Assembly (NCBI RefSeq): GCF_015490265.1
Contig: NZ_WFYD01000062.1
Coordinates: forward strand, 3,748 to 67,747
Direction: 5' to 3'
From: Sulfurivirga sp.
GTDB lineage: Bacteria > Pseudomonadota > Gammaproteobacteria > Thiomicrospirales > Thiomicrospiraceae
DNA: 64,000 nucleotides
Part shown: in pieces, positions 475 through 56,575 of the stretch
Layout of the letters: the number at the start of each line of letters is the position of its first letter
Position numbering within the stretch: position 1 is the stretch's first letter
Position numbers and translations under genes: made by a program
Notes under the pieces: generated by a model
What the model was told of the DNA's origin: nothing
Databases searched by the model: none
Seen by the model: the letters and a program-made list of their open reading frames with translations, nothing else

Positions 475-2463
475 ATGACCATTCGCGCCAAACTCTACAT
501 GGGGATGATCGGGGTGTCGCTGCTGCTGGTGGTGATCACCGCCATGGCCCTGATGAACCTCAATCTGGTCAAGTCGCAGCTGAATACGGTGATCGTGGAG
601 GATCAGCCGCGCGCCTTTGCCACGCTGGAGCTGGCGCGGGACGTGGAGCGCCTGTCGGCTCATCTGGTCAGCTACATGCTGACGGGCGAGGAGGCCAAGC
701 TGCAGAAGGTGCAGCAGGATCTGGAGCAGCTGGAACGCCGGGCCAGTCGGCTGGAGAAGCAGCTGGCCTCCCCGTCCGACCGGCAGGTGCTGGCCGGCAT
801 CCGGCAGAAGATCGATCTGGTGCGGCAGAAGTTGCCGCAGATTGAGGCGATGGAGAAGGACGACACCATCAAGTATCCGGCGCTGAAGGTGGTCTCCAGC
901 GGCATGGACAGCGCCGCGCAGAAGATTCAGGGCGCGCTCTCCCAGATGATCCTGTCCGAACTGTCCGACATGGATCCGGAGCGGGCGGACCTGTTGCAGC
1001 AGCTGATCGACCTGCAGAAGACCTGGCTCAACATCATGATCAACCTGCGCGGGTTCGTGGCCTTCCGCAGCCATAACATGCAGGAGAACATCGACAACTT
1101 CCTCGACGTGTTCGAGAGCAAGCTGGGTCAGCTGGAAAAGGTCGAGGACCTCACGCTGGAGGAGGAAGAAGGCATTCCGGTGGTGCGTGAGAACTACCAG
1201 ACCTGGCGTGAGAACTACATGGTGCTCAAGGGCGTGCTCACCAGCGACAAGTGGCGCATGGACGCCTGGATGTTCGTCCATGAGGTGGACCCCATCCTGA
1301 TGGAGATCGAGCAGGATCTGCAGAAGCTGCTGCAGTCGGTCATTCAGGGCATTCAGGCCAAGGGCAGGGCGGCCGAAGAGCAGACCCACCGCAACATCTG
1401 GATCATGAGCGCGCTGGCCGGTGGCGGCCTGTTGCTGGGCTTCGTGGTCATGGGCTTCGTGATGCGCTCCATTCTCTCCTCGCTGGATGACCTGCGCGAG
1501 GCCATGAAGAATGTCTCCAGCGGCGAAGCGGACCTGACCTTGCGCCTGCCTGAGGACGGCAAGGACGAGCTGGCGGAGATCTCCCACTACTTCAACCGCT
1601 TCGTGGGGCGCATTCAGGAGGTGGTGCGCCAGCTGGTCAGTGATGCCCAGCAGCTGGAGCGGGCCGCGCTAGTGCTGTATGAGCAGAGCGAGGGCGCGCA
1701 GAAGGGGATTGACACCCAGTTCAGGAGCGTGGAGCAGCTGCAGACGCTGATGGACAAGCTGGAGCAGGAGGCCAACGAAGTGGCCGGCTTCTCCACCAAC
1801 ACCGCCCGTGCGGCCAATGACGCCATCGAGCGGGTGGACGACGGTGTGAGCAAGGTGGCCGGCACCCAGCGCACCATCGAGACCCTGGCGGAAGTGATGG
1901 TCAGCCTGCGCGACAGCATTCAGCTGCTGGATCAGGAGAGTGAGACCATCGGTTCGGTGATCAATGTCATTGAGGACATCGCCGAGCAGACCAACCTGCT
2001 GGCGCTCAACGCCGCCATTGAGGCGGCGCGGGCCGGCGAGCACGGTCGCGGCTTCGCGGTGGTGGCCGACGAGGTGCGTCAGCTGGCGCAGCGCACCCAG
2101 GAGTCCACGCAGGAGATTTCCAATGTCATCAACCGCATCCGTGACAACACCCGCCAGACGGTGGAGCGCATGGAGGCGGGCGAGCAGGCGACCGAAGAGA
2201 GCCGGGCGTCCATCGCCGCCGCCGAGCAGGGCCTCAAGCCGGTGGTGGAGTTGATGCGCGACCTCAACAGCCTCAGTGGTGAAATGCAGCAGGTGGCCCA
2301 GCAGGAGACGGAGCTGGTGCGCACCGTGGGACAGCAGATCACCCAGATCCGTCAGGTGACCGAAGAGACGGTGCGCCAGGCGCAGGCCACCAAGGAGGAG
2401 GGCGAGAAGCTGCGGCAGCTGGCCCACCACCTGGACGAGTTGCTCAAGCGCTTCCGCGTGTAG
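475..2463 (+). CDS. methyl-accepting chemotaxis protein (N-terminal TM, sensing region, second TM/HAMP, MA signalling domain)
   Basis: It carries the MCP signalling hairpin motif [38 protein letters not shown]. The ATG at 475 lies after AAGGAA. The track ORF begins at a TTG at 433, which is less likely. Confidence 0.9.
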
Positions 2464-2483
2464 GGTTTTTCAGCTGGCAAAAG

Positions 2484-2513
2484 AAAAGGCCACCGTGAAG
2501 GTGGCCTTTTTCA
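2484..2513. terminator. bidirectional rho-independent terminator between convergent MCP and mscS-family genes
   Basis: The sequence is AAAAGGCCACC-GTGAA-GGTGGCCTTTTT, with A and T runs on both sides. Confidence 0.8.
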
Positions 2514-2531
2514 TTTGGTGTGGGAAGGTTG

Positions 2532-3338
2532 TCAGCCTTCCTGCTTGTGCAGGTGCACGTCCATCTGCGGATAGGGGATGGAGATGCCCTTCTCGTCGAA
2601 GGTGAGTTTGACCTTCTCGTTCATGTCCCACAGCACGGCCCAGTAGTCGCTGCTCTTGACCCAGGCGCGCACGGTGAAGTTGACGCTGGAGTCAGCCAGT
2701 TCGGCCACCGCCACCACGGGCGCGGGGTTGTCCAGAACGCGCGGGTCCGCCGCCAGCAGGGCTTCCAGGGTTTCCTTCGCCAGCTTCAGATCGTCGTCAT
2801 AGCCGATGCCGAAGGTCATGTCCACGCGACGGGTGTCACGGGCGGAGTAGTTGGTGATGGTGTCGCCGTAGATCTTGCCGTTGGGCACGATGATCTCGCG
2901 GTTGTCGCCGGTGTGCAGCTGGGTGGAGAACAGGCTGATCTGATCCACCACGCCGCTGATGCCGGCGATCTCCACGAAGTCACCCTTCTTGAAGGGGCGC
3001 AGCAGAATCAGCATCACGCCGGAGGCGAAGTTCTGCAGCGAGTCCTTCACCGCCAGACCGACGGCCAGGCCGGCGGCACCCAGCAGTGCGATCAGGGAAG
3101 TGGTGTCCACGCCCAGCTGGTTGAGCGCGGCGATGACCACCACCAGCAGCAGCACCGCCTTGAGAATGGTGCCGAGAAAGTCGGTGAGCATGGGATCCAG
3201 CGGGATGCGGTTGAGGCTCTTTTTGACCAGTTGCACGATCCAGCCGGTCAGCCAGTAACCCACTACGGCGATGACAATGGCCATGGCGATCTTGATGCCC
3301 CACGGCAGGGCCATGTCGACAAGCGCTTGGGTATCCAT
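2532..3338 (-). CDS. small-conductance mechanosensitive channel (MscS family)
   Basis: 268 aa with three N-terminal TM helices. NFASGVMLILLRPFKKGDFVEIAGISGVV...IVPNGKIYGDTITNY is typical of the MscS pore and beta domain. Confidence 0.85.
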   Translation of the reverse strand: MDTQALVDMALPWGIKIAMAIVIAVVGYWLTGWIVQLVKKSLNRIPLDPMLTDFLGTILKAVLLLVVVIAALNQLGVDTTSLIALLGAAGLAVGLAVKDSLQNFASGVMLILLRPFKKGDFVEIAGISGVVDQISLFSTQLHTGDNREIIVPNGKIYGDTITNYSARDTRRVDMTFGIGYDDDLKLAKETLEALLAADPRVLDNPAPVVAVAELADSSVNFTVRAWVKSSDYWAVLWDMNEKVKLTFDEKGISIPYPQMDVHLHKQEG

Positions 3339-3446
3339 CGAGGGTATCCTCCTGTGTTGTCAAATTATTGATGCCAGTGTTCAAAAAATGGCGGCGGAAT
3401 TATTGACGATGTTGCGGCATAATACAAGCCGTTTCTGATCGGGGGA

Positions 3447-4262
3447 GTGGGTGTGCTGACCTATCCGCAGCTGGATCCTGTTGCGCTGGATCTGGGGTTT
3501 TTCCAGGTGCGCTGGTACGGGCTGATGTATCTGATCGGGCTGGGGCTGGGCTGGCTGATCGCCCGCCATCGGGCGCGCGCCTCCCACATCTGGACGGCCG
3601 AGAAGGTGGACGATCTGCTTTTCTACGTAGCCTTCGGGGTCATTCTCGGCGGACGTCTGGGCTATGTGCTGTTCTACAACCTGCCCTACTATCTGGATCA
3701 CCCGCTGGAGATCTTCCAGCTGTGGCACGGTGGCATGTCATTCCACGGTGGCCTGCTGGGGGTGATCACCGCCATCTGGCTGTTCCACCGTCGTCACCGC
3801 ATTCCCTTTCTGGCCATCGGCGATTTCATCGCCCCGCTGGTGCCGCTGGGCCTGCTGGCCGGGCGGCTGGGCAATTTCATCAACGGCGAGCTGTGGGGAC
3901 GGGCCGCCCCCCCGGACAGCCCGTTCGGCATGCGATTTTTCGATCCCGCGCTGGGGCATGAGGTGGTGCGCTATCCCACCCAGCTGCTGGAGGCGACGCT
4001 GGAAGGGCTGGTGCTTTTCGCGCTGCTCAACTTCTATGCCCGCTGGAAACCGCCGGTGGGGGCGCTGTCCGGTGCCTTCCTGGTTGGCTACGGGCTGTTC
4101 CGTTTCATCGTGGAGTTCTGGCGCGCGCCCGACCCGCAGCTGGGCTATCTGGCCTTCGGCTGGTTGACCATGGGGCAGGTGCTCAGCACGCCCATGATCA
4201 TCGCCGGCCTGTGGCTGTGGCGCCGGGCCTATCGTCACAACCGCGGCATGACCGCCTGGTGA
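3447..4262 (+). CDS. lgt: prolipoprotein diacylglyceryl transferase
   Basis: [30 protein letters not shown] and [14 protein letters not shown] are Lgt signatures. The start is a GTG at 3447 or 3453. Confidence 0.9.
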
Positions 4263-4269
4263 GGAGACC

Positions 4270-5103
4270 ATGAGACAGTATCTGGACCTTCTGCAGCACA
4301 TTCTGGACCACGGCACCGACAAGGGGGATCGCACCGGCGTGGGCACCCGGTCGGTGTTCGGCTATCAGATGCGCTTCGACATGGCGGACGGCTTTCCGCT
4401 TCTGACCACCAAGAAGCTGCACATCCGCTCCATCATCTACGAGCTGCTGTGGTTTCTGCGCGGGGACACCAACATCCGCTATCTGCATGAGCATGGGGTG
4501 ACCATCTGGGACGAATGGGCCACGGAGGATGGTGAGTTGGGGCCGCTTTACGGCAAGCAGTGGCGCGCCTGGCAGACGCCCCATGGTGAGGAGATCGACC
4601 AGATCAGCGAAGTGATCGAAACGCTGAAGACCAACCCCAACAGCCGCCGCATGATCGTCACCGCCTGGAATCCGGCCGATCTGCCGGATGAGTCCCTCTC
4701 ACCGCAGGAGAACGTCAAACGGGGCAAGATGGCGCTGGCCGCCTGCCACGCCTTCTTCCAGTTCTACGTGGCCAACGGCCGGGTGTCGCTGCAGCTGTAT
4801 CAGCGCAGCGCAGACACCTTCCTCGGCGTGCCCTTCAACATCGCCAGCTACGCGCTGCTGCTGCACATGGTGGCGCAGCAGACGGGCTATGAGCCGGGCG
4901 AGCTGATCTGGACCGGCGGAGACGTGCATCTGTATCACAACACGCTGGAACAGGCGAAACTGCAGCTGACCCGCGAACCGCGCCCGTTGCCCAGGCTGCA
5001 TATCCGACGCAGGCCGGAGAGCATCTTCGACTACCGTTTCGAGGATTTCGAGATCGTGGACTACGATCCGCACCCGCACATCAGGGCCGAGGTGGCGGTG
5101 TGA
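4270..5103 (+). CDS. thyA: thymidylate synthase
   Basis: [41 protein letters not shown] and [13 protein letters not shown] are present. GAGGAG lies upstream of the ATG. Confidence 0.95.
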
Positions 5104-5600
5104 TCAGCCTGATCGCCGCCATGGACCGCAACCGCGCCATCGGGCGCGGCAATGCCCTGCCGTGGCACCTGCCGGATGACCTGAAGCATTTCAAGCGTCT
5201 GACGCTGGGCAAACCGGTCATCATGGGGCGCAGGACCTTTGAGTCCTTGGGTTGCCGGCCGCTGCCGCAACGGCCCAATTTCGTCGTCTCCCGTTCAGGG
5301 TTGGATGCGGAGGGCGTGACCGTGCTGCCCGATCTGGATGAAGCGGTGGCAGCGGCGCGGGCCACCGGTGCGGAGGAGATCATGATCATCGGCGGGGCGC
5401 AGATCTACCGCCAGATGCTGGACTGGGCCGAGCGCATCTATCTGACGCTTGTGGAGACGGAGATCGACGGGGCGGACGCCTGGTTTCCCATGCTGCCGGA
5501 GGCGGACTGGCAGCTGGTGGGGCAGGAGAGCCACCCGGCGGATGAACGGCATCCGTGGCCGTTTCACTTTCAGGTATGGCACAGAAAAGCCCCTCAGTGA
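5100..5600 (+). CDS. folA: dihydrofolate reductase
   Basis: [51 protein letters not shown] is present. The GTG start overlaps the thyA stop (GTGA). Confidence 0.92.
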
Positions 5601-5612
5601 GGGGCCTTCCAT

Positions 5613-6479
5613 TCAGAACATCAGCATCTGCAGGCGGCGGCGGTATTTCTTGACCAGTTCCGGGGCTTCGTCCGCCAGCATGTCGAACACGTCCAGCAGC
5701 AGCGCCTTCACCTTGCCGTCCATCACGTTCACATCGGGGGTAAGCGCCTTCATGAAGGCTTCAAACGCGCCTTCGTAATCCTGCCGCAGCAGCTTGTGGG
5801 CCGCCTCGGCCACCCGCAGCTCCGGGTTGTTGGGGTCTTCCGCCAGTTTCTTTTCCACTTCTTCCAGCGGGCCGGCGGACTGGGCGGTGCGGGCGAATTT
5901 GAGAATCAGACCCAGCGGCTTCCCCTGGGCGCTGTTGCGCACTGCTTCCGGCAGGCTGTTGTAGAGTTCCGCCGCTTCGTCGATGCGGCCGGTCTTGAGG
6001 AAGATGTTGACCAGATCCAGATGGATGCGGGTGTTGCGCGGGTCTTCCGCCGCCGCCTTCTTGAGCAGTGCGATGGCAGTGTCCGCGTCTCCGGCGCGGA
6101 AGGCGGCCAGCGCCTGCTGGCGCAGGTCATCGGAGGCACGCACCAGATGGGGTTCCAGCAGCTGACGGAAGGCGGATTCCGGCTGGGCGCCCATCAGCTC
6201 GGCCACCGGCTGGCCGTTCTTGAACAGCTTGAAGGTGGGCACGGAACGCACCCCATACTGCATGGCCAGCGTCTGCTGTTCGTCGATGTTCACCTTGGCG
6301 AGAATGAACTGCCCGGCCATCTCTTCGGCCAGCTTTTCCAGCACCGGCATCACCATGCGGCACGGGCCGCACCAGGGTGCCCAGAAGTCCACCAGCACCG
6401 GCTGCTGGCTGGAGCCTTCGATGACCACCTGATTGAAGTTGTCCTGGGTGACGTCGATGATGAATTCACTCTTTGCCAT
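5613..6479 (-). CDS. thioredoxin-domain plus TPR protein (YbbN/CnoX-like), with an intact WCGPC active site
   Basis: The N-terminus has [23 protein letters not shown]. The C-terminal part is about 180 aa of TPR-like helical repeats. GGAGAT lies upstream of the ATG, and the start overlaps the mutS 3' end by 14 nt. Confidence 0.85.
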
Positions 6480-9015
6480 GGTCTCGCATCTCCTTCAGTT
6501 CGTAGAGTGTCTGCAGCGCCTCTCGGGGTGTCATGGCGTCCGGTTCCAGCGTGTCGATAAATTCCAATATGGGGTCGGGTTGCGGGGTTTCAACAAACAG
6601 ATCCAGCTGCGGCTGGGCAGGCTGGGCGTTGAGGCTGTGGCGTTCCAGCTCGGCCAGTTTTTTCCGGGCGCGGGCGATGACGGCGCGGGGCACGCCCGCC
6701 AGCGCCGCCACCTGCAGGCCGTAGCTCTGGGAGGCGGGGCCGGGTCTGACCTGATGCAGAAAGACGATGCGGTCACCATGCTCCACCGCGTCCAGATGCA
6801 CGTTGGCCACGCCGTCCAGCTGCTCGGCCAGCTGGGTCAGCTCGAAGTAGTGGGTGGCGAACAGGGTGTAGGCGCCCACCTTGCGCGCCATGTGTTCGGC
6901 CACCGCCCAGGCCAGCGCCAGCCCGTCGAAGGTGGAGGTGCCGCGGCCGATCTCGTCCAGCAGCACCAGTGAGTCGGCGGTGGCGTGGTGCAGGATGTTG
7001 GCCGTCTCGCTCATCTCCACCATGAAGGTGGAGCGGCCGGAGGTGAGGTCGTCGGAGGCGCCGATGCGGGTGAAGATGCGGTCCACCGGCCCGATGACCG
7101 CTTTCTCGGCCGGCACGAAGCAGCCGGCATGGGCCATGAGCACGATCAGCGCCGTCTGGCGCATGTAGGTGGACTTGCCGCCCATGTTGGGGCCGGTGAT
7201 GATCTGCATGGGCTGCTCCACCAGCACCGTGTCATTGGCGATGAAGGGCTCGTCCGAGAGCGCTTCCACCGTCAGGTGGCGGCCCTGTTCGATATGAATG
7301 CCCCGTTCATCGGTGAGGGCGGGGCGGGTGAGGTTGAGGCTGCGGGCCCGTTCGGCGAGCGCGGCCAGCACATCCAGCTCTGCCAGCGCGGCGGCGGCCC
7401 GCTGCAGCGGAGCCAGATGTTCATTGAGCCGTTCCAGCAGCTGCTGATAGAGCCACTTTTCCCGCGCCAGCGCCTTTTCGCCGGCGGAGAGGATTCTGTC
7501 CTCGAATTCCTTCAGCTCCGGAGTGATGTAGCGTTCGGTGTTCTTGAGGGTCTGGCGGCGCACATAGTCGGCGGGCACGGCATCCGCGTGGGTGCGGGTG
7601 ACCTCGATGTAGTAGCCGTGCACCCGGTTGTAGCCCACTTTCAGGGTGGGAATGCCGGTGCGTTCCCTTTCCCGCGCTTCCAGCGCCGCAAGAAAGTCGC
7701 CCGCCTCGTCCCGGAGGGCGCGCAGTTCATCCAGCTCCGCATCGAAACCCGGCGCGATCACGCCGCCGTCACGAATGGTCATGGGCGGGTTGTCCACCAG
7801 CGCCCGGGTGAGCAGGTCGTGCAGCTCAGGCTGTGGCGCCAGCGCCTCGGCCTGTTGCGTCAGACCCGCGCCTGTCAGCGCCTCCTGCAGGGCGGGCAGC
7901 TGGCCCAGCGCCGTGCCCAGCTGCACCAGATCCCGCGGGCGGGCGGAATAGAGGGCCACGCGGGAGAGAATGCGCTCCACATCGCCCACCGGCTTGAGCA
8001 GCTCGCGCAGGGTGTCCTCATGCCAGCCGTCCAGAAGCTGCTCGATGACGTCGTGCCGGGCGCTGAGGGTGGCACGGTCACGCAGCGGCTGGGTCAGCCA
8101 GCGTCTGAGCAGGCGGCTGCCCATGGGCGTGCGGCAGGTGTCCAGAATGGACGCCAGGGTGTGTTCCTCGCCGCCGCGCAGGTTCTCGACGATTTCCAGA
8201 TTGCGGCGGCTGACCGCATCCAGAATGAGAGTGTCGCCCAGATGCACCCGGCGGAAGCCTGTCAGGTGCTTGAGATCGTGGCGCAGCATGGACTGGGCAT
8301 AGTGCAGCAGCGCGCCCGCCGCGCCCAGCAGGGCGGGAGCGCCGTCCAGCCCGAAGGCGCGCAGGTCTTCGGTGTCGAACTGGTCGCGCACCTTGCGCGC
8401 GCCCGTGTCCGGCTCAAAGTGCCAGTCGGCCAGCGGCGTGACGGCCGCCTCCACCGGCAGGTTCAGTGCGCTGCCTTCCGGCAGCAGGATCTCCGCCGGA
8501 CTCAGGCGGGCCAGTTCGGCGCGCAGCGCAGTCTCGTCGTCGCATTCACACCCTTCGAAGCGGCCGCTGGAGACCTCCAGCCAGGCCAGCCCGAACCCTT
8601 TTTTGAAGGGAAGCACCGCCGCCAGCAGGTTGTCGCGGCGGGCGTCCAGCAGGTCGTCCTCGGTAAGCGTGCCCGGCGTGACGATGCGCACCACCTTGCG
8701 CTCCACCGGCCCCTTGCTCGTGTTGGGGTCGCCCACCTGCTCGCAGATGGCCACCGACTCGCCCGCCTGCACCAGTCGGGCCAGATAGCTTTCCACGCTG
8801 TGGTAGGGCACGCCGGCCATGGGGATCGGCTCGCCGGCGGACTTGCCCCGTTTGGTGAGGGTGATGTCCAGCAGCGCCGCGGCCCGCTCGGCATCCTCGT
8901 AGAACAGCTCGTAGAAGTCCCCCATGCGGTAGAACAGCAGATGGTCGGGATACTCCGCCTTGATGCGCAGATACTGCTGCATCATGGGGGTGTGCTGGCT
9001 GAGATCCTGGTTCAT
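6466..9015 (-). CDS. mutS: DNA mismatch repair protein MutS
   Basis: 849 aa. The N-terminus reads [34 protein letters not shown], the Walker A motif is [13 protein letters not shown], and [14 protein letters not shown] is present. Confidence 0.97.
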
Positions 9016-9070
9016 GGCAAACCTGTGGGAAATGGGCGTGATATGCTAAAAGACCCTCGGGAGTAAAGCA

Positions 9071-9556
9071 ATGGAACCAAGGGTTGAGCTGACTGAGCGT
9101 CTGGCGCAGGCGCTGCTGGCACGGGGCTGGATGCTGGTGACGGCGGAGTCCTGCACCGGTGGCATGGTGGCCGAGTGGTGCACGTCGATCTCCGGCAGCA
9201 GCCGCTGGTTCTTCGGCGGCTTCGTCACCTATGACAACCGCGCCAAGATGGAGTGGCTGGGCGTGCGGGAGGAGACGCTGCGGCTGCATGGCGCGGTCAG
9301 CGAGCAGACGGTGCGGGAGATGGTGGACGGGGCGTTGAGCCGCTCGCCGGCACAGGCGGCGCTGGCCATCTCCGGCATCGCCGGGCCGACCGGCGGCACG
9401 CCGGACAAGCCGGTGGGCACGGTGTGGATCGGCTGGGGGATCGAGGATCGGCGCTGGGCCGAGCGCTTCCACTTCGACGGGGACCGGGACGCGGTGCGCC
9501 GGCAGGCGGCGCAGGCGGCGCTGGAAGGGCTGTCGACCCGCCTGCAACTCCTGTAA
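9071..9556 (+). CDS. pncC: CinA C-terminal-domain protein / nicotinamide-nucleotide amidase
   Basis: LVTAESCTGGMVAEWCTSISGSS, GGFVTYDNRAK and GIAGPTGGTPDKPVGTVWIG are present. Confidence 0.8.
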   Translation: MEPRVELTERLAQALLARGWMLVTAESCTGGMVAEWCTSISGSSRWFFGGFVTYDNRAKMEWLGVREETLRLHGAVSEQTVREMVDGALSRSPAQAALAISGIAGPTGGTPDKPVGTVWIGWGIEDRRWAERFHFDGDRDAVRRQAAQAALEGLSTRLQLL

Positions 9557-12974: not shown

Positions 12975-13345
12975 GCGATTTTCCGCCGCGACAGACCACC
13001 GTCCGGCAAAAATGGGGGAGACCCCATCGTCAGGGCGCTTTCAGCATGGCAGGGCGACTTCTGCGGTGTCGTGCCGTTCGCCGGTGGCGGTGACCGTGGC
13101 GTATCGGGTCGGCCTGCAACAATGGAGGGCGCCACACCGGAAAAAATCGACGGAAGGCCGCATTTCCCCCTGTTTTCCGCCAGGCCGCCGGCGCGGTTGC
13201 GCGGCGGACCGTATAAACGGGAGAGACCCCGTTCAGTGGGCGTTGCGGGGCGGAAAAGGGTTGTTGGGCGGGCTTTTTCCGATGTGCCGCGGGCGGGTCG
13301 GACAGGCATTGGGCAAAAATGGGGGAGACCCCGTGTGGGACGGTG
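12975..13345 (-). repeat. array of dispersed repeat units (reverse orientation): type A, type B, type A
   Basis: Cores are GCAAAAATGGGGGAGACCCCAT at 13006-13027, type B GTATAAACGGGAGAGACCCCGTTCAGTGGGCGTTGCGGGG at 13211-13250, and GCAAAAATGGGGGAGACCCCGT at 13313-13334. Each is preceded by a TTTTCCG...GCCGC arm. Confidence 0.85.
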
Positions 13346-17214: not shown

Positions 17215-17345
17215 GTAAAAACGGGGGAGAGCCCGTTCAGCGGGCATTGCGGGGTGGGATATAGCCACGGAAAGGGCGTTTTTCCGGCACGCCGCAGGCG
17301 CGTCAGACGGGCGTTCGCTAAAAACAGGGGAGACCCCGTGCGGAG
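17215..17345 (-). repeat. composite dispersed repeat (type B plus type A, reverse orientation), homologous to 13211-13345
   Basis: Cores are type B GTAAAAACGGGGGAGAGCCCGTTCAGCGGGCATTGCGGGG at 17215-17254 and type A GCTAAAAACAGGGGAGACCCCGT at 17317-17339. The spacing of about 100 nt matches the 13.2 kb locus. Confidence 0.85.
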
Positions 17346-35149: not shown

Positions 35150-35300
35150 GTGACATGTCCGGTCGCGTGCTGCGGCCGTCCGGCAAAAATGGGGGAGACC
35201 CCGTCCCGACCCGCCTTTTACGGCATGAGTGTGGGTTTTTCGCGCATTTTTTCGGCGCGTCCGCGCGCCGCTGCGCAAAATCAGGGGAGACCCCATTGGC
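35145..35300 (-). repeat. two dispersed repeat units (reverse orientation)
   Basis: Cores are GCAAAAATGGGGGAGACCCCGT at 35183-35204 and GCAAAATCAGGGGAGACCCCAT at 35275-35296. Each is preceded by a TTTTTCG...GCCG arm. Confidence 0.85.
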
Positions 35301-50246: not shown

Positions 50247-50335
50247 CCGTCCTCCGGCGGCATCAGGTCGATGCCTCTTTGGGGCGGCTGGCAGGCGGGC
50301 GACCCGCCGCCGTGGGCGCTGTCAGGCCGCAAACC

Positions 50336-50700
50336 ACGGGGTCTCCCCTGATTTTGCCCGACGCCGTGTCACCGCGCTGCCAGCGCGCCGCAAAAATGCC
50401 TGCAAAAGTTGCTTCCATGCCGGAAAGGGGCCGTCAGAACGGGGTCTCCCCCGATTTTGCAGGCTGCCCGTGTCGCCCCGCTGCGGAAAACCACCGTCAT
50501 GCCGCCTCTGAAGGTTTTTTCGCCCGGAAAAGGTATGGGCAACGGGGTCTCCCCTCATTTTGGCAAGTGTCCTGCCACCGCACCGGGAAAAAATCCGCAG
50601 AAGTGGACTGTTCACGCCGGATAAGCCGGTCTGCAACGGGGTCTCCCCCATTTTTGCCGAATGCCGTCCGACCGCGCCTCGCGCGTGCCGGAAAAAACGC
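50336..50700 (+). repeat. tandem array of four dispersed repeat units (forward orientation), periods of about 103, 103 and 94 nt
   Basis: Cores are at 50336-50357, 50439-50460, 50542-50564 and 50636-50657 (ACGGGGTCTCCCC[CT][GCA][AG]TTTTG[G]C). Each is followed by a GC-rich arm ending in CCGGAAA(A). Confidence 0.9.
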
Positions 50701-50714
50701 TGCTGGGAGGCGTT

Positions 50715-51887
50715 TCAACCGGTCTTGCGCACCAGCATGGCCGCCAGCAGGATGAAGGTGCCGGAGCAGAGCAGCACCATCTCCATGCCGCCCGCCTGAT
50801 AGAGCGCGCCGGAGAGCACCGTACCCAGCAGCCGCCCGCCGGCATTGGCCATGTAGTAGAAGCCCACATCCCTGGAAACCCCATCCTCCGTGGCCATGGC
50901 CACCACCAGATAGGAGTGCACGGCGGAGTTGAGGGCGAACAGCACGCCGAACAGCGCCAGACCGATCAGCAGCGTGGCGGTGGGAGAGAGCGGAAACAGC
51001 GCCGCCATGGCGAAGGGCACGGCGGCGAGTACGAAGGCCAGCAGACTGGCGGTGCCCGCCGTGGGGTGGGGGGTCAGCCGGGCGGTCAGCCGGGGGCTGA
51101 TGCCCTGAATGAAACCGTAGCCGATGACCCAGGTGGCGAGAAAGCCGCCGCTCTCAACAAACGACCAGCCGAGCACGCCTTCCAGATAGACCGGCAGCGC
51201 CACTACGAACCATACATCCCGCGCCGAAAACAGAAAGAAGCGCGCCGCAGACAGCCAGTTGAGCGCGGCGGACTTGGAAAAAATCTCGCGGAACCGGCTT
51301 TTGGCCTTTGCCTTGCCCAGATCGGTCCTGAGCCAGATGAGCGAGCCGGTCAGCACCACCGCCAGCATGGCAGAAAGCAGCATCAGTGCCGGGCGGAAGC
51401 CGATCCACTCCAGCAGCGCCGCACCTACGAAGAAGCCCACGCCTTTCAGGGCATTCTTGGAGCCGGTCAATGCCGCCACCCAGCGATAGAGCTGGCCGGA
51501 GGCATCATCCGCCAGCAGCTTGACGCTGGATTTGGCCGACATCTTGTTGAGATCCTTGGCGATGCCGGAGAGCATCTGGGCGAACATCACCCAGGCCACG
51601 GACAGATACTGATCGGGCACGGTCAGCATCATCAGCGCCACGATCTGCAACGCCAGTCCCATGTTCATGGTGCGGTTGAGGCCATGGCGCGCCCCCAGCC
51701 AGCCGCCGACGAGGTTGGTGAACACGCCGGCCAGCTCGTAGAGGATGAACAGAGTGGCGATGGCGAACGGCGAATAGCCCAGCTGGTAGAAGTAGAACAG
51801 CACCAGCATGCGGATGGCGCCGTCGGTGATGGTGAAGGCCCAGTAGTTGCCGGTGATGAGGGCGTACTGCTTCAGCCGGGGCGACAT
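50715..51887 (-). CDS. MFS transporter, ArsJ-like (tentative family assignment)
   Basis: 390 aa with 12 TM helices. From memory, the N-terminal YALITGNYWAFTITDGAIRMLVLFYFYQLGYSPFAIATLFILYELAGVFTNLVGGWLGAR resembles the ArsJ organoarsenical efflux family. GAGGAG lies upstream of the ATG at 51887. Confidence 0.6.
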   Translation of the reverse strand: MSPRLKQYALITGNYWAFTITDGAIRMLVLFYFYQLGYSPFAIATLFILYELAGVFTNLVGGWLGARHGLNRTMNMGLALQIVALMMLTVPDQYLSVAWVMFAQMLSGIAKDLNKMSAKSSVKLLADDASGQLYRWVAALTGSKNALKGVGFFVGAALLEWIGFRPALMLLSAMLAVVLTGSLIWLRTDLGKAKAKSRFREIFSKSAALNWLSAARFFLFSARDVWFVVALPVYLEGVLGWSFVESGGFLATWVIGYGFIQGISPRLTARLTPHPTAGTASLLAFVLAAVPFAMAALFPLSPTATLLIGLALFGVLFALNSAVHSYLVVAMATEDGVSRDVGFYYMANAGGRLLGTVLSGALYQAGGMEMVLLCSGTFILLAAMLVRKTG

Positions 51888-52207
51888 GGCGTGCTCCTCA
51901 GCGCGCGGCGGCCCGGTTGAGCCGGCCCACCTTGCGCGCCAGCACCGGCGGCGGCAGAAGCCGCCTGATGGCCGCATGAATCTTCATGATGCATCTGCCT
52001 TTATTCGTTTATGCGGATAAGGGAACTCTATAAGCATGATGTATGGTGAAGCATGAACATTTTGTGACAGGGCGTCCCGGGCCGTGAGTGATGCGGGGAG
52101 ACGGACGCTGATGGCACCGTCGCTCTGGGGGGTCTAACGGCTTTTGCCGGGCACCGGGCAGGAACGCCTGTGCGGGCGGATGAGGGCGGTGGCAGAGGTC
52201 GTGCCGG

Positions 52208-52588
52208 TCAGCCCGTGCAGCCGCCCTTGCTGCACAGTGCCTGATTCAGCGCGGCGTCATCCCTCCTGAGCTGATCATCCGTCGCCTTCAGCTGGCGCAC
52301 CGCTTCCAGCGCCTGCCGCTGCCAGTCGGAGAGGTCTGGATTGAGGCGGTAGTGCATCCAGGTGCCCTGGCGTTCCGCCAGCACCAGACCGCCATTGCGC
52401 AGCAGCGACAGATGGCGTGACACCGTGCTCTGGGGCAGTCCCAGCACGCTCACCAGATCGCACACGCAGTGGCTTTCGCCATCCATCAGCAGGGCGACCA
52501 GCCGCAGCCGCACCGGCTCGCTCAGCAGTTTGAAGAACCCGCTTGCCTGTTCCATCATTTTGTCTTTTCCCGGAAACGGTGTGTCCAT
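52208..52588 (-). CDS. arsR: ArsR/SmtB-family metalloregulator
   Basis: The wHTH reads FKLLSEPVRLRLVALLMDGESHCVCDLVSVLGLPQSTVSRHLSLLRNGGLV and carries the CVCDL metalloid-binding motif. An extra Cys pair lies at the C-terminus (LCSKGGCTG). The start could instead be at the MMEQ methionines (52558/52555). Confidence 0.85.
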   Translation of the reverse strand: MDTPFPGKDKMMEQASGFFKLLSEPVRLRLVALLMDGESHCVCDLVSVLGLPQSTVSRHLSLLRNGGLVLAERQGTWMHYRLNPDLSDWQRQALEAVRQLKATDDQLRRDDAALNQALCSKGGCTG

Positions 52589-52676
52589 ATTGTGTCATAC
52601 CGGATTTGTTCTTGCATATATCCGCATATCCGAATAAAGTAATGTCATACCTTGTCATCACGGAGGACGCTGATCC
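52589..52676. promoter_or_regulatory. divergent arsR / permease control region with repeated motifs (candidate ArsR operator)
   Basis: It is AT-richer than its surroundings. TGTCATACC occurs at 52593-52601 and 52643-52651. A tandem GCATATATCC/GCATATCC lies at 52614-52631. GGAGGA lies 9 nt upstream of the permease ATG. Confidence 0.35.
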
Positions 52677-53639
52677 ATGTTTCAGGCACTGGGCGACTGG
52701 GTCGCCTACTCGCTGCTGGGACTGAGTCCGGAGAGTCATCTGGGCCAGGCGGTGCAGTTCTTCGTCATGGACACCGCCAAGATTTTCTTCCTGCTGGTGG
52801 TGATCATCTACGTGATGGGGCTGCTGCGGGCCATGGTGTCACCGGAGCGGGTACGCGAGTATCTGCGCGGCAAGCCGGTGTGGCTGCAGCGTGCGCTGGC
52901 CATCACGCTGGGGGCGATCACCCCCTTCTGTTCCTGTTCCTCCATTCCGCTGTTCATCGGCTTCGTAGAGGCGGGCATTCCGCTGGGAGTCACCTTCTCG
53001 TTTCTGATCGCCAGCCCCATGATCAACGAGGTGGCGGTGGTGCTGCTGGCCACCATCGTCGGCTGGAAGATCGCCGTCCTCTATGTCATCGCCGGCATGG
53101 TGGTGGCCTGGTTCGGCGGCATCATCCTGCAGAAGATGAAGCCGGAGCGCTGGGTGGAAGAGTATGTGTGGAAGATCCACATGGGCGAAACCCCGGCCAT
53201 CGAGCAGGACACCTCGCTGGCGGGCCGCCACCGCTTCGCCATGCAGGAGGTGAAGGAGATCGTCGGACGCATCTGGAAATGGGTGCTGGCTGGCGTGGCG
53301 CTGGGGGCGCTGTTCCACGGCTTCGTGCCCCAGAGCTGGGTGAGCGAACACCTCTCCGGCGGCGACTGGTGGTCGGTGCCGGCGGTGGTCATCCTCGGCG
53401 TGCCGCTCTATTCCAACGCCACCGGTGTGGTGCCGGTGGTGGAGGCCTTGCTCAGCAAGGGCGTGCCGCTGGGCACCACGCTTGCGCTGATGATGAGCAT
53501 CGCCGCGCTCTCCCTGCCGGAGATGCTCATTCTGCGCAAGGTGATCAAACTGCCGCTGATCGCCCGGTTCGTCGCCGTGCTGGCGGTCAGCTTCATTGTG
53601 GTGGGCTATCTGTTCAACTTTCTGGAGCATCTGATATGA
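52677..53639 (+). CDS. ArsP-like permease (UPF0718 / DUF318 family)
   Basis: 320 aa, polytopic, with the characteristic TPFCSCSSIPLF motif. Confidence 0.8.
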   Translation: MFQALGDWVAYSLLGLSPESHLGQAVQFFVMDTAKIFFLLVVIIYVMGLLRAMVSPERVREYLRGKPVWLQRALAITLGAITPFCSCSSIPLFIGFVEAGIPLGVTFSFLIASPMINEVAVVLLATIVGWKIAVLYVIAGMVVAWFGGIILQKMKPERWVEEYVWKIHMGETPAIEQDTSLAGRHRFAMQEVKEIVGRIWKWVLAGVALGALFHGFVPQSWVSEHLSGGDWWSVPAVVILGVPLYSNATGVVPVVEALLSKGVPLGTTLALMMSIAALSLPEMLILRKVIKLPLIARFVAVLAVSFIVVGYLFNFLEHLI

Positions 53640-54097
53640 CTCAACAACCGCAACTGCACAAAAACATTCAGAACCTGGTGGCGCTGGGCGCCGCCATCGC
53701 CAGCAAGTGCCTCAAACAGGCGTGGCTGCTGGAGCAGGAACTGCTCAAGGCAGGCGTGCCGCAGCATCAGATCGACCAGGCGGTGGAGATCGCCGCGGCC
53801 ATGCGCGATCAGGCCCATGCCAATACCGTCGCCCTGTTCAGAGCCGGGCCGCAGGCGCTGATCGACGGCATCAGCCAGCTGGAGATCGACAAATCCGCCC
53901 CCTGTGACTGCGAAGGAGATAGCTGCTGTACCCCGGCGGACAACGCGGACGAGGGTTGCTGCGAGAGTGAAAGCAGCAGCTGCTGTGGCGAAGAGCGTGT
54001 GGAGTCGTCCGGCTGCTGTGGTGAGGACAGCGCGGAATCGTCCGGTTGTTGTGGCGGTGATGACGATGTGACCACACCAAAAGGATGCTGTGGCTGA
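53636..54097 (+). CDS. 153-aa protein: helical N-terminal domain (possibly AhpD/CMD-like) plus an acidic poly-Cys tail with six vicinal CC pairs
   Basis: The ATG overlaps the permease stop (ATGA). The tail reads APCDCEGDSCCTPADNADEGCCESESSSCCGEERVESSGCCGEDSAESSGCCGGDDDVTTPKGCCG. It is the 3' third of the spurious 481-aa track ORF. Confidence 0.7.
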   Translation: MTQQPQLHKNIQNLVALGAAIASKCLKQAWLLEQELLKAGVPQHQIDQAVEIAAAMRDQAHANTVALFRAGPQALIDGISQLEIDKSAPCDCEGDSCCTPADNADEGCCESESSSCCGEERVESSGCCGEDSAESSGCCGGDDDVTTPKGCCG

Positions 54098-54345
54098 TCT
54101 TTGTAGAGGGCGAACAGAGCGGCGATGCGATTTGTGGAGCCATCCTGGTGGTTGTTGGCATCAGGGCCGGAAGTGCGCGGCGCATGTCTGACCGCAGGGA
54201 GTTTGCGCCGCGCCCGGCCCGGCCTTACAACCACTTGATGGCGGAACCCATGAGCGAGCTGGTCTGTCCGCCCGACAGGGGGTACAAATCGCTACGCAGG
54301 CTTATCAGTCACAGCAAGTCAGAATTTTGTAAAAAGGAGAAAACC

Positions 54346-54579
54346 ATGAAAGAAATCAAAGTCCTCGGTTCCGGCTGCGCCAACTGCCAGACCACCGCCA
54401 GGCTGATTGAAGAGGTGGCCAGAGAACTGGGCGTGGAGGTCAACATCGAAAAGGTGGAAGACATCGCCCAGATCATGAGCTATGGCGTCATGTCCACCCC
54501 GGGTGTGGTGATTGACGGCAAGGTGGTGCACGCCGGTGGCGTGCCCGGCCGTGACCAGATTGCGGGCTGGCTCAAGTGA
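54346..54579 (+). CDS. small thioredoxin-fold protein (redox-active disulfide protein 2 type)
   Basis: 77 aa. MKEIKVLGSGCANCQTT and VMSTPGVVIDGKVVHAGGVP are present. AAGGAGA lies upstream of the ATG. Confidence 0.85.
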   Translation: MKEIKVLGSGCANCQTTARLIEEVARELGVEVNIEKVEDIAQIMSYGVMSTPGVVIDGKVVHAGGVPGRDQIAGWLK

Positions 54580-54896
54580 GCCACTGCGCCCTGCCGGTTC
54601 AGGGGGAGATCATCAACGACCACCGTTCGGACTGGCCGCTGATCGAGCTGACCCTCTACGGCAGCCGCAACGAGACGGCCAAACTGGCCAAACGGGTCAA
54701 CTGCGCCCTGCGCACGTTGCCGTTGCGGGCGCGGCTGCACTATGTGCGCGACCCGCTGGCCTGGGCGGAGGCGGGCATCGGGCGGCTGCCGGCGCTGGCC
54801 GCGCCCGGCTGGCGGCACGAGGGCTGGCTGAGCACGGAGGAGATCGCCCGCGCGCTGGCGGCGCTGACAGATGGCAAGGAGGGAGAAGGAGCATGA
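54576..54896 (+). CDS. hypothetical protein; apparent CxxC-less paralogue of the preceding thioredoxin-fold gene
   Basis: The GTG overlaps the upstream stop (GTGA). IELTLYGSRNETAKLAKRV...GRLPALAAPGWRHEGWLSTEEIARAL aligns by eye with IKVLGSGCANCQTTARLIEEV...MSTPGVVIDGKVVHAGGVPGRDQIAGWL. Confidence 0.4.
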   Translation: MSHCALPVQGEIINDHRSDWPLIELTLYGSRNETAKLAKRVNCALRTLPLRARLHYVRDPLAWAEAGIGRLPALAAPGWRHEGWLSTEEIARALAALTDGKEGEGA

Positions 54897-55256
54897 AACG
54901 GACGGTTCTTCTGGCGGGAATGCTGCTGAGCGCGGCAAACGGCTGGGCCGGTCGTGGCTCGAACTGATCCTGTGGACTTTGCCCAAGTGGGGCTGGAGGA
55001 GGGCATGGGGCTGCGCGAGGCGCTGCTCAAGGCGGTGGACCTGCGCACCCGGCCCATCCTCATGACCGCCACCGCGGCGGGCGTGGGCATGATCCCCATC
55101 GCGCTGGAGTGGGCGGTGGGCATCGAGCGCCTGTCACCGCTGGCGGTGGTGGCCATCGGTGGCCTGATTACCGGCACCTTCCTCACGCTGGTGGTGGTAC
55201 CCGTGTTCTTCCACCTGCTGGAGAGTGCCAGGCACCGCATTTATGCAAAATATTGA
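54893..55256 (+). pseudogene. remnant of a heavy-metal RND efflux operon: a 24-codon signal-peptide stub followed by the last ~90 codons of a CzcA/CusA-type pump
   Basis: The stub MKRTVLLAGMLLSAANGWAGRGSN* (54893-54967) is followed by the frame 54954-55256, which encodes REALLKAVDLRTRPILMTATAAGVGMIPIAL...VVAIGGLITGTFLTLVVVPVFFHLL. That is the C-terminal TM11-12 region of RND permeases. Confidence 0.65.
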
Positions 55257-55280
55257 TGCAAATCAGTCAAAAAGTGATTA

Positions 55281-55305
55281 AAAGGGGCTCCGCGCCCCTT
55301 TTTTC
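55281..55305 (+). terminator. rho-independent terminator after the RND remnant
   Basis: The sequence is AAAGGGGC-TCCGC-GCCCCTTTTTT. Confidence 0.7.
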
Positions 55306-55317
55306 ATGGGAATTTCA

Positions 55318-55361
55318 CACGGCGAAAAATTGCCGCTGTGCAAAAATAGGGGAGACCCCAT
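55318..55361 (-). repeat. single dispersed repeat unit (reverse orientation)
   Basis: The core GCAAAAATAGGGGAGACCCCAT is at 55340-55361. Confidence 0.75.
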
Positions 55362-55399
55362 GAACAAGACAAAGAACAGCACACACAAGGAGAACGCTT

Positions 55400-55957
55400 A
55401 TGGTCAGTCTGGTGACGCCCGTCTGTGAGTTTGACAAACCTGCGCCGGATTTCGCTCTGCCGGGCGTGGACGGCGAGATCTGGACGCTGGAGAAGGCCCG
55501 CGGCGAAAACGGGCTGCTGGTGATGTTCATCTGCAACCACTGTCCCTACGTGAAGGCCATCCTGCCGCGGCTGGTGCGGGATGCCCGTCAGCTGCGGGAC
55601 GAGCATGGCATCAACAGCATCGCCATCATGTCCAATGATCCCACGCAGTATGTGGAGGACTCCTTCGACAACATGAAGAAGGTGGCGCGGGAATGGGACT
55701 TCCCCTTTCCCTATGTGTATGACGAGACGCAGGAAGTGGCCCGCGCGTTCGGCGCCGTGTGCACGCCCGACTTCTTCGGCTACAACCGGGACCTCAAACT
55801 GCAATACCGTGGCCGGCTGGACGCCTCCCGCAAGGAGCCGGCGCCGGAAGACGCCCGGCGTGAGCTGTTCGAGGCCATGGTGCAGGTGGCCGAGACGGGG
55901 CGCGGCCCCGAAGACCAGATTCCCTCCATGGGCTGCTCCATCAAGTGGCGCGATTGA
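55400..55957 (+). CDS. thioredoxin-fold thiol-disulfide oxidoreductase (AhpC/TSA-like family)
   Basis: PAPDFALPGVDGEIWTL, the redox motif LVMFICNHCPYV and VCTPDFFGYN are present. Confidence 0.8.
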   Translation: MVSLVTPVCEFDKPAPDFALPGVDGEIWTLEKARGENGLLVMFICNHCPYVKAILPRLVRDARQLRDEHGINSIAIMSNDPTQYVEDSFDNMKKVAREWDFPFPYVYDETQEVARAFGAVCTPDFFGYNRDLKLQYRGRLDASRKEPAPEDARRELFEAMVQVAETGRGPEDQIPSMGCSIKWRD

Positions 55958-56029
55958 CAGGGAAAACCTCATTCCTGGCACAGGAATTGCTGATCGTCTG
56001 ATGTCAAGTCAGCCTGAAGAGGAGTGTTC

Positions 56030-56575
56030 ATGGCACGTCAGACCATCACGCCCACGGGGCGGGAGAAGCCGTTTACCGGTGAGCGCATGATCGTCTCCAA
56101 GACCGATCTGCGCGGCACCATCACCTATGTCAACCGTGCCTTCATGGAGGTGTCGGAGTTTCCCTACACCGAGCTGCTCGGCCGGCCCCACAACGTCATC
56201 CGTCATCCGGACATGCCGCGCACGGCCTTCCGCCACCTGTGGAAGACCCTCCAGAGCGGCGAGGAGTGGTTCGGCATGGTCAAGAACATCACCGCCAGCG
56301 GCGACCACTACTGGGTGTTTGCCAATGTCACCACCGACTACCGTGACGGTCAGGCCATCGGCTACTACTCCATCCGCCGCCCGCTGCCGGAGCCGCTCAA
56401 GCAGCTGGCGGGCGAACTCTATGCCGAGCTGCGCCGCATCGAGGCCGGCGAGGGCATGGACGCGGCGGAAAAGTGGCTCATGGAGCAGGTGGAGGCGGCA
56501 GGATTTGCCTCCTACCGGGACTTCATGCTGCAGACCTATCTCAGGCACGCCGGGCAGGCAGGAGGTGAGGCATGA
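56030..56575 (+). CDS. stand-alone PAS-domain sensor protein (Aer-type PAS)
   Basis: [76 protein letters not shown] is present. GAGGAG lies upstream of the ATG at 56030. Confidence 0.85.

Follow-up and report, generated by a model that had tools for sequence, protein, structure and literature searches.

What might a small protein whose cysteines crowd into an acidic tail contribute to an arsenic resistance module? The question is raised by a gene, here called X, in a 64,000-nucleotide stretch of Sulfurivirga sp. DNA (contig NZ_WFYD01000062.1, positions 3,748 to 67,747; this whole stretch is referred to as the window). A sequence-only reading of the window had described the product of X as an acidic protein with an AhpD-like helical domain and with 14 cysteines, including six vicinal pairs, in a tail of 65 residues, and had not recognized it as a described ars component. 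The analysis presented here places X in an apparently new family of ars-operon accessory proteins, of which the window carries an extreme tail variant.

A selected gene with a cysteine-pair-rich tail

Translation of positions 53636-54097 on the forward strand gives a product of 153 amino acids followed by a stop codon, identical to the sequence quoted in the earlier reading. Cysteines occupy positions 25, 90, 92, 97-98, 108-109, 116-117, 127-128, 138-139, and 151-152; residues 89-153 hold 14 of them (C90, C92, and six CC pairs), and C25 is the only other one in the protein. The tail, which reads SCCTPADNADEGCC...GCCG, thus contains 21.5% Cys, versus 1.07% in ten large open reading frames (ORFs) of the same window, where just 2 CC pairs occur in 7,377 residues. 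Its isoelectric point is 4.05 (17 D+E versus 2 K+R), that of the entire protein being 4.23, and AlphaFold2 (AF2) predicted disorder from residue 87 on, with a predicted local distance difference test score (pLDDT) below 50, in agreement with the disorder suspected earlier. The overlap that had been noted between X and the upstream permease was also seen, the start codon ATG at 53636 sharing ATGA with the TGA stop of the permease ORF (52677-53639), and a GGAG motif lies 8 nucleotides 5' of this ATG. Tandem Repeats Finder (TRF) detected a 33-nucleotide period at 53979-54056 (2.4 copies, 77% matches), which in the protein register corresponds to the units SSSCCGEERVE, SSGCCGEDSAE, and SSGCCGGDDDV. 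The repeat previously placed at 54001-54066 is therefore correct in substance, with limits that were slightly too narrow, as the units span 53972-54070. A lipoprotein or secreted protein was ruled out, since X lacks a lipobox and has no hydrophobic segment of the kind found in signal peptides or membrane-spanning regions, its highest 19-residue Kyte-Doolittle mean being 1.36.

A word-indexed search of 5.8 billion proteins with the window protein returned eight close homologue clusters at 68-92% identity, and the wider family described below came to light only through a scan of genomes and a second search that started from the homologue in Thiohalobacter. Among X and its eight close homologues, the first 100 residues are nearly unchanged, and the tails vary by in-frame gain or loss of CC-bearing units; the copy number of the repeat differs among close relatives, in which 11, 19, or 22 residues are missing here, always in frame. 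Compared with three relatives, the N-terminal domain shows synonymous to non-synonymous codon differences of 26:5, 31:9, and 24:9, and the substitutions between X and its closest relative (locus L003) are distributed as 4, 4, and 24 over the three codon positions. In the tail, the spacer residues drift, and each shared Cys is retained despite TGC/TGT codon flips. X is thus a real gene under purifying selection. High-GC DNA does produce many long false ORFs, and several overlap the X region on both strands, the extra antisense and out-of-frame frames being a common product of DNA with 64% GC; X itself could by the same token be a non-functional, spurious, or low-complexity read-through frame. 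However, third-position changes dominate, synonymous changes outnumber non-synonymous ones by about 3-5:1 in the N-terminal domain, insertions and deletions respect the frame, cysteines are kept through synonymous changes, synteny holds over about 100 loci, and the domain is confidently modeled by AF2. The chance that X is such a frame is negligible, this explanation being already refuted by the conservation data. Nor did any homologue turn out to be a known metallothionein, no such match having been obtained.

The resemblance of the N-terminal domain to AhpD and carboxymuconolactone decarboxylase (CMD) folds, noted in the earlier reading, was borne out for the fold. The Pfam CMD profile (PF02627) aligned residues 7-65 of X to its positions 20-78 of 84 with an E-value of 4.6e-4 and 20.6 bits, under the gathering cut-off of 23, and NCBIfam TIGR04169 gave an E-value of 0.037 and 14 bits versus a cut-off of 120, while P0129, a member of the core family described below, had no Pfam CMD match; these matches alone are insufficient for assigning X to the family. 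A profile of the X family, searched against 1.84 billion sequences, reached two-repeat proteins at E-values of 1e-9 to 1e-4. These relatives have 160-200 amino acids, carry the motif GCxPCTxxH, and very often have CGC or CC at the C-terminus; the ones that were tested pass Pfam CMD by themselves and match NCBIfam AhpD-domain models, among which is the AhpD part of the arsenite methyltransferase/AhpD domain selenoprotein. Profile-profile comparison with hhalign of a 129-sequence X alignment (A3) against 22 CMD proteins (A5) yielded a probability of 98.2% and an E-value of 3e-14, and placed X on the second, CxxC-less repeat of the two-repeat relatives.

The structure predictions point in the same direction. 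An earlier AF2 model from a 9-sequence alignment was poor (pLDDT 53.7), and the 129-sequence alignment was used instead, which gave a pLDDT above 95 for residues 10-70 and helices at 6-22, 26-38, 43-70, and 72-81. All of the top 15 Foldseek matches in the PDB were CMD/AhpD proteins, with 3bey first (probability 1.00, TM-score 0.50-0.61), RclX (7y4r), TM1620 (1vke/1p8c), and Mycobacterium tuberculosis AhpD (1lw1/1knc) among the further leading matches, and 2cwq and 2af7 (TTHA0727 and MTH gamma-CMD) after these. A search of PDB sequences with the family profile found nothing significant, 3bey (E 0.086) ranking behind chance matches to a designed protein and to ribosomal L12. Taken together, these results identify the N-terminal part of X as a divergent, degenerate single-repeat CMD/AhpD-like helical domain. 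What has not been kept is the catalytic CxxC...H of AhpD: in alignment A4, C25-L-K-Q28...L32 of X stands opposite C-x-P-C-x-x-x-H, so that the first Cys corresponds to C25, the second to Q28, and the His to L32. The core family has H-P-x-M at the CxxC positions and a Cys six residues later.

Two of the three two-repeat relatives with a readable context sit in ArsR-controlled clusters, one of which has the order ArsR - GAPDH - ACR3 - ArsP - Trx_3 - sigma - CMD. In the other (metagenomic locus L102/L103, ~960-4650), a Cys-tailed CMD relative is found by an HgcA-like corrinoid protein, with the order ArsR - CdhD-like corrinoid protein (HgcA-like) - ferredoxin - ArsM-like methyltransferase - YgaP-like transmembrane protein - CMD. 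This order links a clade related to X with hgcAB-type loci.

An unnamed family beside ArsP

A scan of one genome per species uncovered nine further loci, in Thiohalobacter thiocyanaticus, a Thiobacillus metagenome-assembled genome (MAG), and various gammaproteobacterial MAGs, encoding proteins 34-50% identical (tblastn E 1e-12 to 1e-15). These core-family proteins have about 100-110 amino acids and all terminate in CCTPTxSGQSCC; the window protein is 32-43% identical to the core family (alignments A2 and A3). The Thiohalobacter-seeded search returned at least 1,422 clusters at E ≤ 1e-3, none with a Pfam domain; those that bear a name are called hypothetical protein, bar one evident misnomer. 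When a 30-sequence profile was run exhaustively with HMMER on 1.84 billion representatives, only 122 of them matched at E ≤ 1e-3, indicating that the family is compact at the 50% identity level. Across it, the terminal CC...CC is nearly invariant. X has no Pfam or NCBIfam family (NCBIfam release 20, June 2026), and its RefSeq homologue from Sulfuricella is a hypothetical protein, in line with the earlier impression that no described ars component was at hand. Both annotations speak against X being ArsF of the published ArsEFG system, which the literature covered gives by name only.

Co-occurrence with the permease was then assessed in 89 related loci that the scans of genomes and metagenomes had yielded, the denominators below being the loci with enough flank. 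Of 76 loci, 70 have an ArsP homologue upstream of X in the same orientation. A Thioredoxin_3 homologue adjoins X in 66 of 82 loci, downstream of it in 53 and immediately upstream in 13; in several of the loci without one, the contig breaks off within an arsM downstream of X. In 20 of 79 loci, the gene immediately 3' of X codes for an ArsM homologue, and ArsR and ArsJ are frequent farther upstream. The coupling of ArsP and X, a 4-nucleotide start/stop overlap in the window, takes the form of gaps of about 15-50 nucleotides in many relatives. X therefore belongs to a sizeable unnamed family that is near-always found beside ArsP.

The sole annotated replicon found to carry the family is plasmid pSCD of Sulfuricella denitrificans, where X corresponds to the hypothetical protein WP_009207731.1 in the order ArsR - rhodanese - ArsC - ACR3 - GDCCVxC protein - permease - X - arsenite methyltransferase, followed by two hypothetical proteins, a thioredoxin family protein, and ArsC. 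On this plasmid (L099), the ArsE-type thioredoxin (8820-9089) terminates in ESCCGCCGKE and the GDCCVxC-domain protein preceding the permease (5719-5937) in HSCCEGNKS, so that vicinal-Cys tails recur on several proteins of the module. In a plasmid collection, a core-family query gave one match and the window protein none. Protein P0133 (380 amino acids) is a fusion of ArsM (residues 5-257; NF008823, 331 bits versus 263) to an X domain (residues 268-380) with the terminus CCTPTKSGQSCC. In two further database representatives, X seems to be joined to the C-terminus of ArsP (P0217) or to the C-terminal half of a Thioredoxin_3 protein (P0155); as these genes overlap or are closely spaced, both cases are probably frameshift or assembly artefacts. 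X was also considered as a precursor of a ribosomally synthesized and post-translationally modified peptide, with a leader and a Cys-rich core, a reading that was set aside after no recurring maturase-type genes were seen in about 100 loci.

The hosts of the family are mostly sulfur-oxidizing Gamma- and Betaproteobacteria (Thiohalobacter, Thiohalophilus, Thiobacillus, and Sulfuricella), and rhodanese genes occur in some related clusters, after ArsR in pSCD and flanking ArsP in L013, where two such genes (3621-4559 and 5544-5987) encode signal-peptide-bearing proteins. Both features would suit a sulfane-sulfur carrier, a role also raised in the earlier reading, in which the CC pairs of X take persulfide or polysulfide from rhodaneses for thioarsenical export or sulfur trafficking. 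We consider this very improbable: the window module and most related loci have no rhodanese, rhodanese folds in ars clusters can be arsenate reductases, and X is unlike the known persulfide carriers TusA and DsrE by Pfam and NCBIfam.

Within the family, the window subfamily (only eight clusters found) stands apart in both domains. The near-invariant core motif NHPxMGxCQ is replaced by KCLKQAWLL (SKCLKQAWLL) and EIARHIRDEA by EIAAAMRDQA, so that the equivalents of core residues H25, C31, R54, and H55 are replaced (H25 to C25, C31 to L31, and H55 to A55 among them), and the tail has acquired CDC and another four CC pairs. Like the core tail, the window tail starts with CC(T/S)P and has a terminal CC pair. 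The ancestral CC-x8-CC thus grew from two to six CC pairs via tandem duplication of an 11-codon unit, and the 14-Cys tail does not define X but is a lineage-specific expansion of this ancestral C-terminal motif. Independent extra CC units occur elsewhere in the family, in L054 (4 CC), P0132/P0136 (4 CC), L041, and L037.

The features of the window that surround and compose X are collected in Table 1. As had been proposed, X stands between a permease and a thioredoxin-fold protein, now assigned to the ArsP_1 and Thioredoxin_3/ArsE families, in a module under ArsR; the thioredoxin-like protein also passes NCBIfam TIGR00412 (103.9 bits versus a cut-off of 62). Close relatives keep the order ArsR / ArsP - X - Trx_3 - small ORF - AhpC/TSA. 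The small ORF, orf106, has 72% identity in L003/L004 and 45% in L006-L008, no Pfam or NCBIfam match, and, by eye, the look of a glutaredoxin-like fold minus its CxxC. The AhpC/TSA-like gene occupies the same position in L001, L003, and L004 at 88-90% identity.

Table 1. Features of X and its surroundings in the window
Feature	Position	Strand	Evidence
Gene X, CMD/AhpD-like helical domain and Cys-pair-rich tail	53636..54097	+	Translation, homologues, selection, synteny
N-terminal helical domain of X, residues 1-88	53636..53899	+	AF2, Foldseek, hhalign, alignment A4
Disordered acidic tail of X, residues 89-153, CxC and six CC pairs, ending TTPKGCCG-COOH	53900..54094	+	Translation, pLDDT
Three tandem 33-nt (11-codon) units, SS(S/G)CCG(E/G)(E/D)xx(E/V)	53972..54070	+	TRF, protein register
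ArsP_1-family permease, TPFCSCS motif, stop overlapping X start	52677..53639	+	Pfam ArsP_1 E 3.4e-73
Thioredoxin_3 / MTH895/ArsE family thioredoxin-like protein, CANC active site, 77 aa	54346..54579	+	Pfam E 4.4e-29
ArsR/SmtB repressor, CVCD metal(loid) site (HCVCDL), divergent	52208..52588	-	Pfam HTH_5, NCBIfam NF033788
ArsJ organoarsenical major facilitator superfamily efflux permease, downstream of arsR	50715..51977	-	NCBIfam NF033734 equivalog, 564 bits vs 400
orf106, small protein, GTG start overlapping the stop of the thioredoxin-like gene	54576..54896	+	Conserved only in close relatives
AhpC/TSA-redoxin-like thiol oxidoreductase	55400..55957	+	Pfam AhpC-TSA E 2.6e-18

Several side observations concern this neighborhood. 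In L001, a gene of the metallo-beta-lactamase fold (Lactamase_B, 2728-3657) is inserted between ArsP and X. The spacer from X to the thioredoxin-like gene measures 248 nucleotides in the window and 14-230 in relatives, and at 54163-54225 it contains a GC-rich inverted repeat with 22-nucleotide arms (77% complementary) and a 19-nucleotide loop. Between the ars-like module and the AhpC/TSA gene, a 100-residue ORF (54954-55256, forward strand) matches only positions 937-1020 of the 1021 of ACR_tran (E 8e-23); this remnant of the C-terminus of a resistance-nodulation-division (RND) pump of the AcrB type is absent from the same spot in L003. An interspersed intergenic repeat with the core ACGGGGTCTCCCC(n)TTTTGC has 15 copies in the window versus 0.13 expected, at 50335-50703, 12105, 13015-13334, 17224-17339, 26933, 35192-35296, 45122, and 55349; copies are often in tandem with a spacing of about 94-103 nucleotides, four of them lie between ppsA and arsJ, and the repeat has the look of a repetitive extragenic palindromic (REP) sequence or a miniature inverted-repeat transposable element (MITE). 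An Rfam scan of the entire window gave no match, and a promoter and terminator scan of 51900-56100 found nothing exceeding the shuffle expectation.

Candidate roles of X

What, then, could X do beside ArsP? In keeping with the cytoplasmic chaperone or buffer suggested in the earlier reading, X may, by analogy, be a cytosolic arm that binds trivalent arsenicals and feeds ArsP, kept reduced by ArsE, a role to which we give about an even chance. It is suggested by the vicinal-dithiol arm, by the linkage to ArsP, ArsE, and ArsM, and by what is established about As(III)-thiol chemistry, ArsD, and ArsP. Vicinal thiols are strong ligands of As(III), the gene of the As(III) chaperone ArsD is near-always beside that of its partner, arsA, and ArsP exports methylarsenite (MAs(III)) and trivalent roxarsone, not inorganic arsenite (PMC6205960). 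The setting in the window is one of arsenic, with an ArsR that carries CVC, an ArsJ equivalog, an ArsP_1 permease, and a thioredoxin-like protein of the family of ArsE, which has been cited as a PF13192 organoarsenical-resistance protein (bioRxiv 10.1101/2022.10.17.512643). The flexible, CC-bearing arm of X would capture trivalent arsenicals as thiolate complexes, As(III) with three sulfur ligands and methylarsenite or aromatic As(III) with two. It would hand them by ligand exchange, for export, to the CxC site of ArsP, which we take to be the Cys motif found as TPFCSCS in the window permease, and the handover would simultaneously buffer free cytosolic As(III). ArsE would keep the arm reduced, the helical domain might act as an oligomerization or docking scaffold (CMD proteins form trimers or hexamers), and the six CC pairs of the window lineage would raise the binding capacity. 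Comparable arms are known: besides its Cys12-13-18 site, ArsD carries CC pairs C-terminally, and in MerA a C-terminal CC arm delivers Hg(II) to the active site. Carried further, the X family would be the first metallochaperone dedicated to a secondary permease for organoarsenicals, that is, an ArsD-like partner of ArsP derived from a degenerate AhpD domain, whose arm takes MAs(III) or As(III), including what an adjacent or fused ArsM releases, to the CxC of ArsP and whose capacity is tuned by 11-codon slippage. This fuller version is offered tentatively and seems less likely than not.

Several points weigh against the arsenical-binding arm. The function is argued from guilt by association and analogy, and the Foldseek E-values behind the fold are individually weak (≥0.06, none below 1e-3). 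ArsP_1 is a broad permease family, and the window member has no equivalog match and scores under the curated cut-offs of the SaoE and SO_0444 Cu/Zn models, so that an arsenical substrate is presumptive. The window has no arsM, and the near-invariant residues of the core are lost in the window subfamily, which may therefore work by another mechanism than the core. The CVC site of ArsR/SmtB regulators also occurs in Cd/Pb sensors. Finally, a redox role would account equally well for the CMD ancestry and for the thioredoxin-like protein next to X.

Some of these points would also suit a general soft-metal (Zn, Cd, Cu, or Hg) buffer, resembling a metallothionein and serving a cation-exporting ArsP_1 permease: the permease is partly similar to the SO_0444 Cu/Zn efflux and SaoE models, the CVC site is not peculiar to arsenic, the acidic Cys-rich tail resembles metallothionein chemistry, and a GDCCVxC-domain protein adjoins the permease in Sulfuricella. 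Such a buffer appears improbable, given that the permease falls far under both metal-efflux cut-offs (132.8 versus 325 and 102.3 versus 300), that the surroundings are arsenic-specific here and family-wide (ArsJ, ArsM, ArsC, ACR3, and GAPDH), and that X has no Pfam metallothionein match and does have a folded domain of 88 residues.

The redox role, the main rival of the arsenical-binding arm, deserves closer weighing. Here, the C-terminal CC pairs of X would cycle between the dithiol and an eight-membered-ring disulfide with ArsE and carry no arsenic; they could re-reduce the catalytic disulfide of ArsM, reduce pentavalent organoarsenicals, or keep the CxC of ArsP reduced. The descent of X from the AhpD/CMD superfamily of thiol oxidoreductases speaks for such a relay, as do the CxxC of the thioredoxin-like neighbor, the AhpC/TSA-like protein in close relatives, the ArsM genes immediately downstream in 20 of 79 loci, and the ArsM-X fusion P0133, an architecture that has an analogue in the arsenite methyltransferase/AhpD domain selenoprotein of NCBIfam NF041537. 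C25 still stands where the first cysteine of CxxC would be, and the termini of the window protein (GCCG) and of the core family (SCC) resemble the C-terminal SCCS/GCUG arm of high-Mr thioredoxin reductase. However, the CxxC...H is gone from the core family and the window subfamily alike, X aligns with the very repeat of its CMD relatives that is devoid of CxxC, six CC pairs on an acidic disordered tail suit capacity for binding more than a catalytic relay, and the tightest linkage is to the permease rather than to ArsM, which the window lacks. On balance, we regard the redox relay as rather unlikely. The relay and the arsenical-binding arm are not mutually exclusive.

ArsP-type permeases rank among the commonest transporters of arsenic, and methylarsenite is considered a primordial antibiotic. 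To our knowledge, it has not been explained what shields cellular thiols from the toxic trivalent product of ArsM and directs this product to ArsP, and the X family is a concrete, readily testable candidate for this missing step. If the chaperone role is true, X would be a new component of ars operons, ArsD would no longer represent the sole type of arsenic metallochaperone, and the six-pair tail would provide a small natural tag that binds As(III)/Sb(III), of use in biosensing or remediation; a metallochaperone of ArsP would deserve a new ars gene name. If instead the redox relay is true, X would reveal the way in which thioredoxins of the ArsE type connect to arsenic methylation.

Comparison with known systems

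The closest functional parallel to the role proposed here is ArsD (PF06953), which, like X, is small, cytosolic, and encoded beside its transporter partner in ars operons (PMC6205960). As is proposed for X, ArsD binds As(III) and hands it over to an efflux system. Both proteins have vicinal Cys pairs, which in ArsD include non-essential C-terminal CC pairs. They differ in fold and partner, ArsD having a thioredoxin fold and serving the ArsA ATPase, whereas X is all-helical, CMD/AhpD-like, and would serve the secondary permease ArsP. No ArsD match to X was obtained in Pfam or NCBIfam, and neither the window module nor the related loci inspected showed an ArsA-like gene.

By ancestry, X is nearest to the CMD/AhpD superfamily (PF02627), with which it shares a homologous helical domain and which recurs beside or fused to arsenite methyltransferases; the superfamily includes the ArsM-AhpD fusion selenoproteins (NF041537) and an arsenosugar-associated peroxidase-like protein (TIGR04169). 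Unlike these proteins, X has just one repeat, some 80 residues long, no CxxC...H, and a score under the Pfam threshold. The tail invites a different comparison, as MerA (...CCAG) and thioredoxin reductase (...GCUG/SCCS) also bear a CC pair at or near the C-terminus on a flexible segment, which passes on a soft metal in MerA and acts as a mobile redox centre in thioredoxin reductase. Those arms sit on a large flavoenzyme and carry one pair, whereas X has no catalytic domain and six pairs. With the metallothioneins SmtA and BmtA, X has in common its small size, its richness in Cys, thiolate-cluster chemistry, and regulators of the ArsR/SmtB type, but it matches no metallothionein family, has a folded helical domain with a single Cys before the tail, keeps its cysteines almost only as CC doublets in an acidic Ser/Gly-rich repeat, and occurs in the context of arsenicals rather than of Zn or Cd. 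The family with the CCTPTxSGQSCC tail (WP_009207731.1 and the Thiohalobacter thiocyanaticus Hrh1 homologue, for example) is 35-41% identical to X in the helical domain and shares with it the CCTP...CC beginning of the tail and the position ArsP - X - (ArsM) - Trx_3, and it is from this core that the window protein departs, with its altered motifs, its CDC, its four more CC pairs, and the absence of an adjacent arsM.

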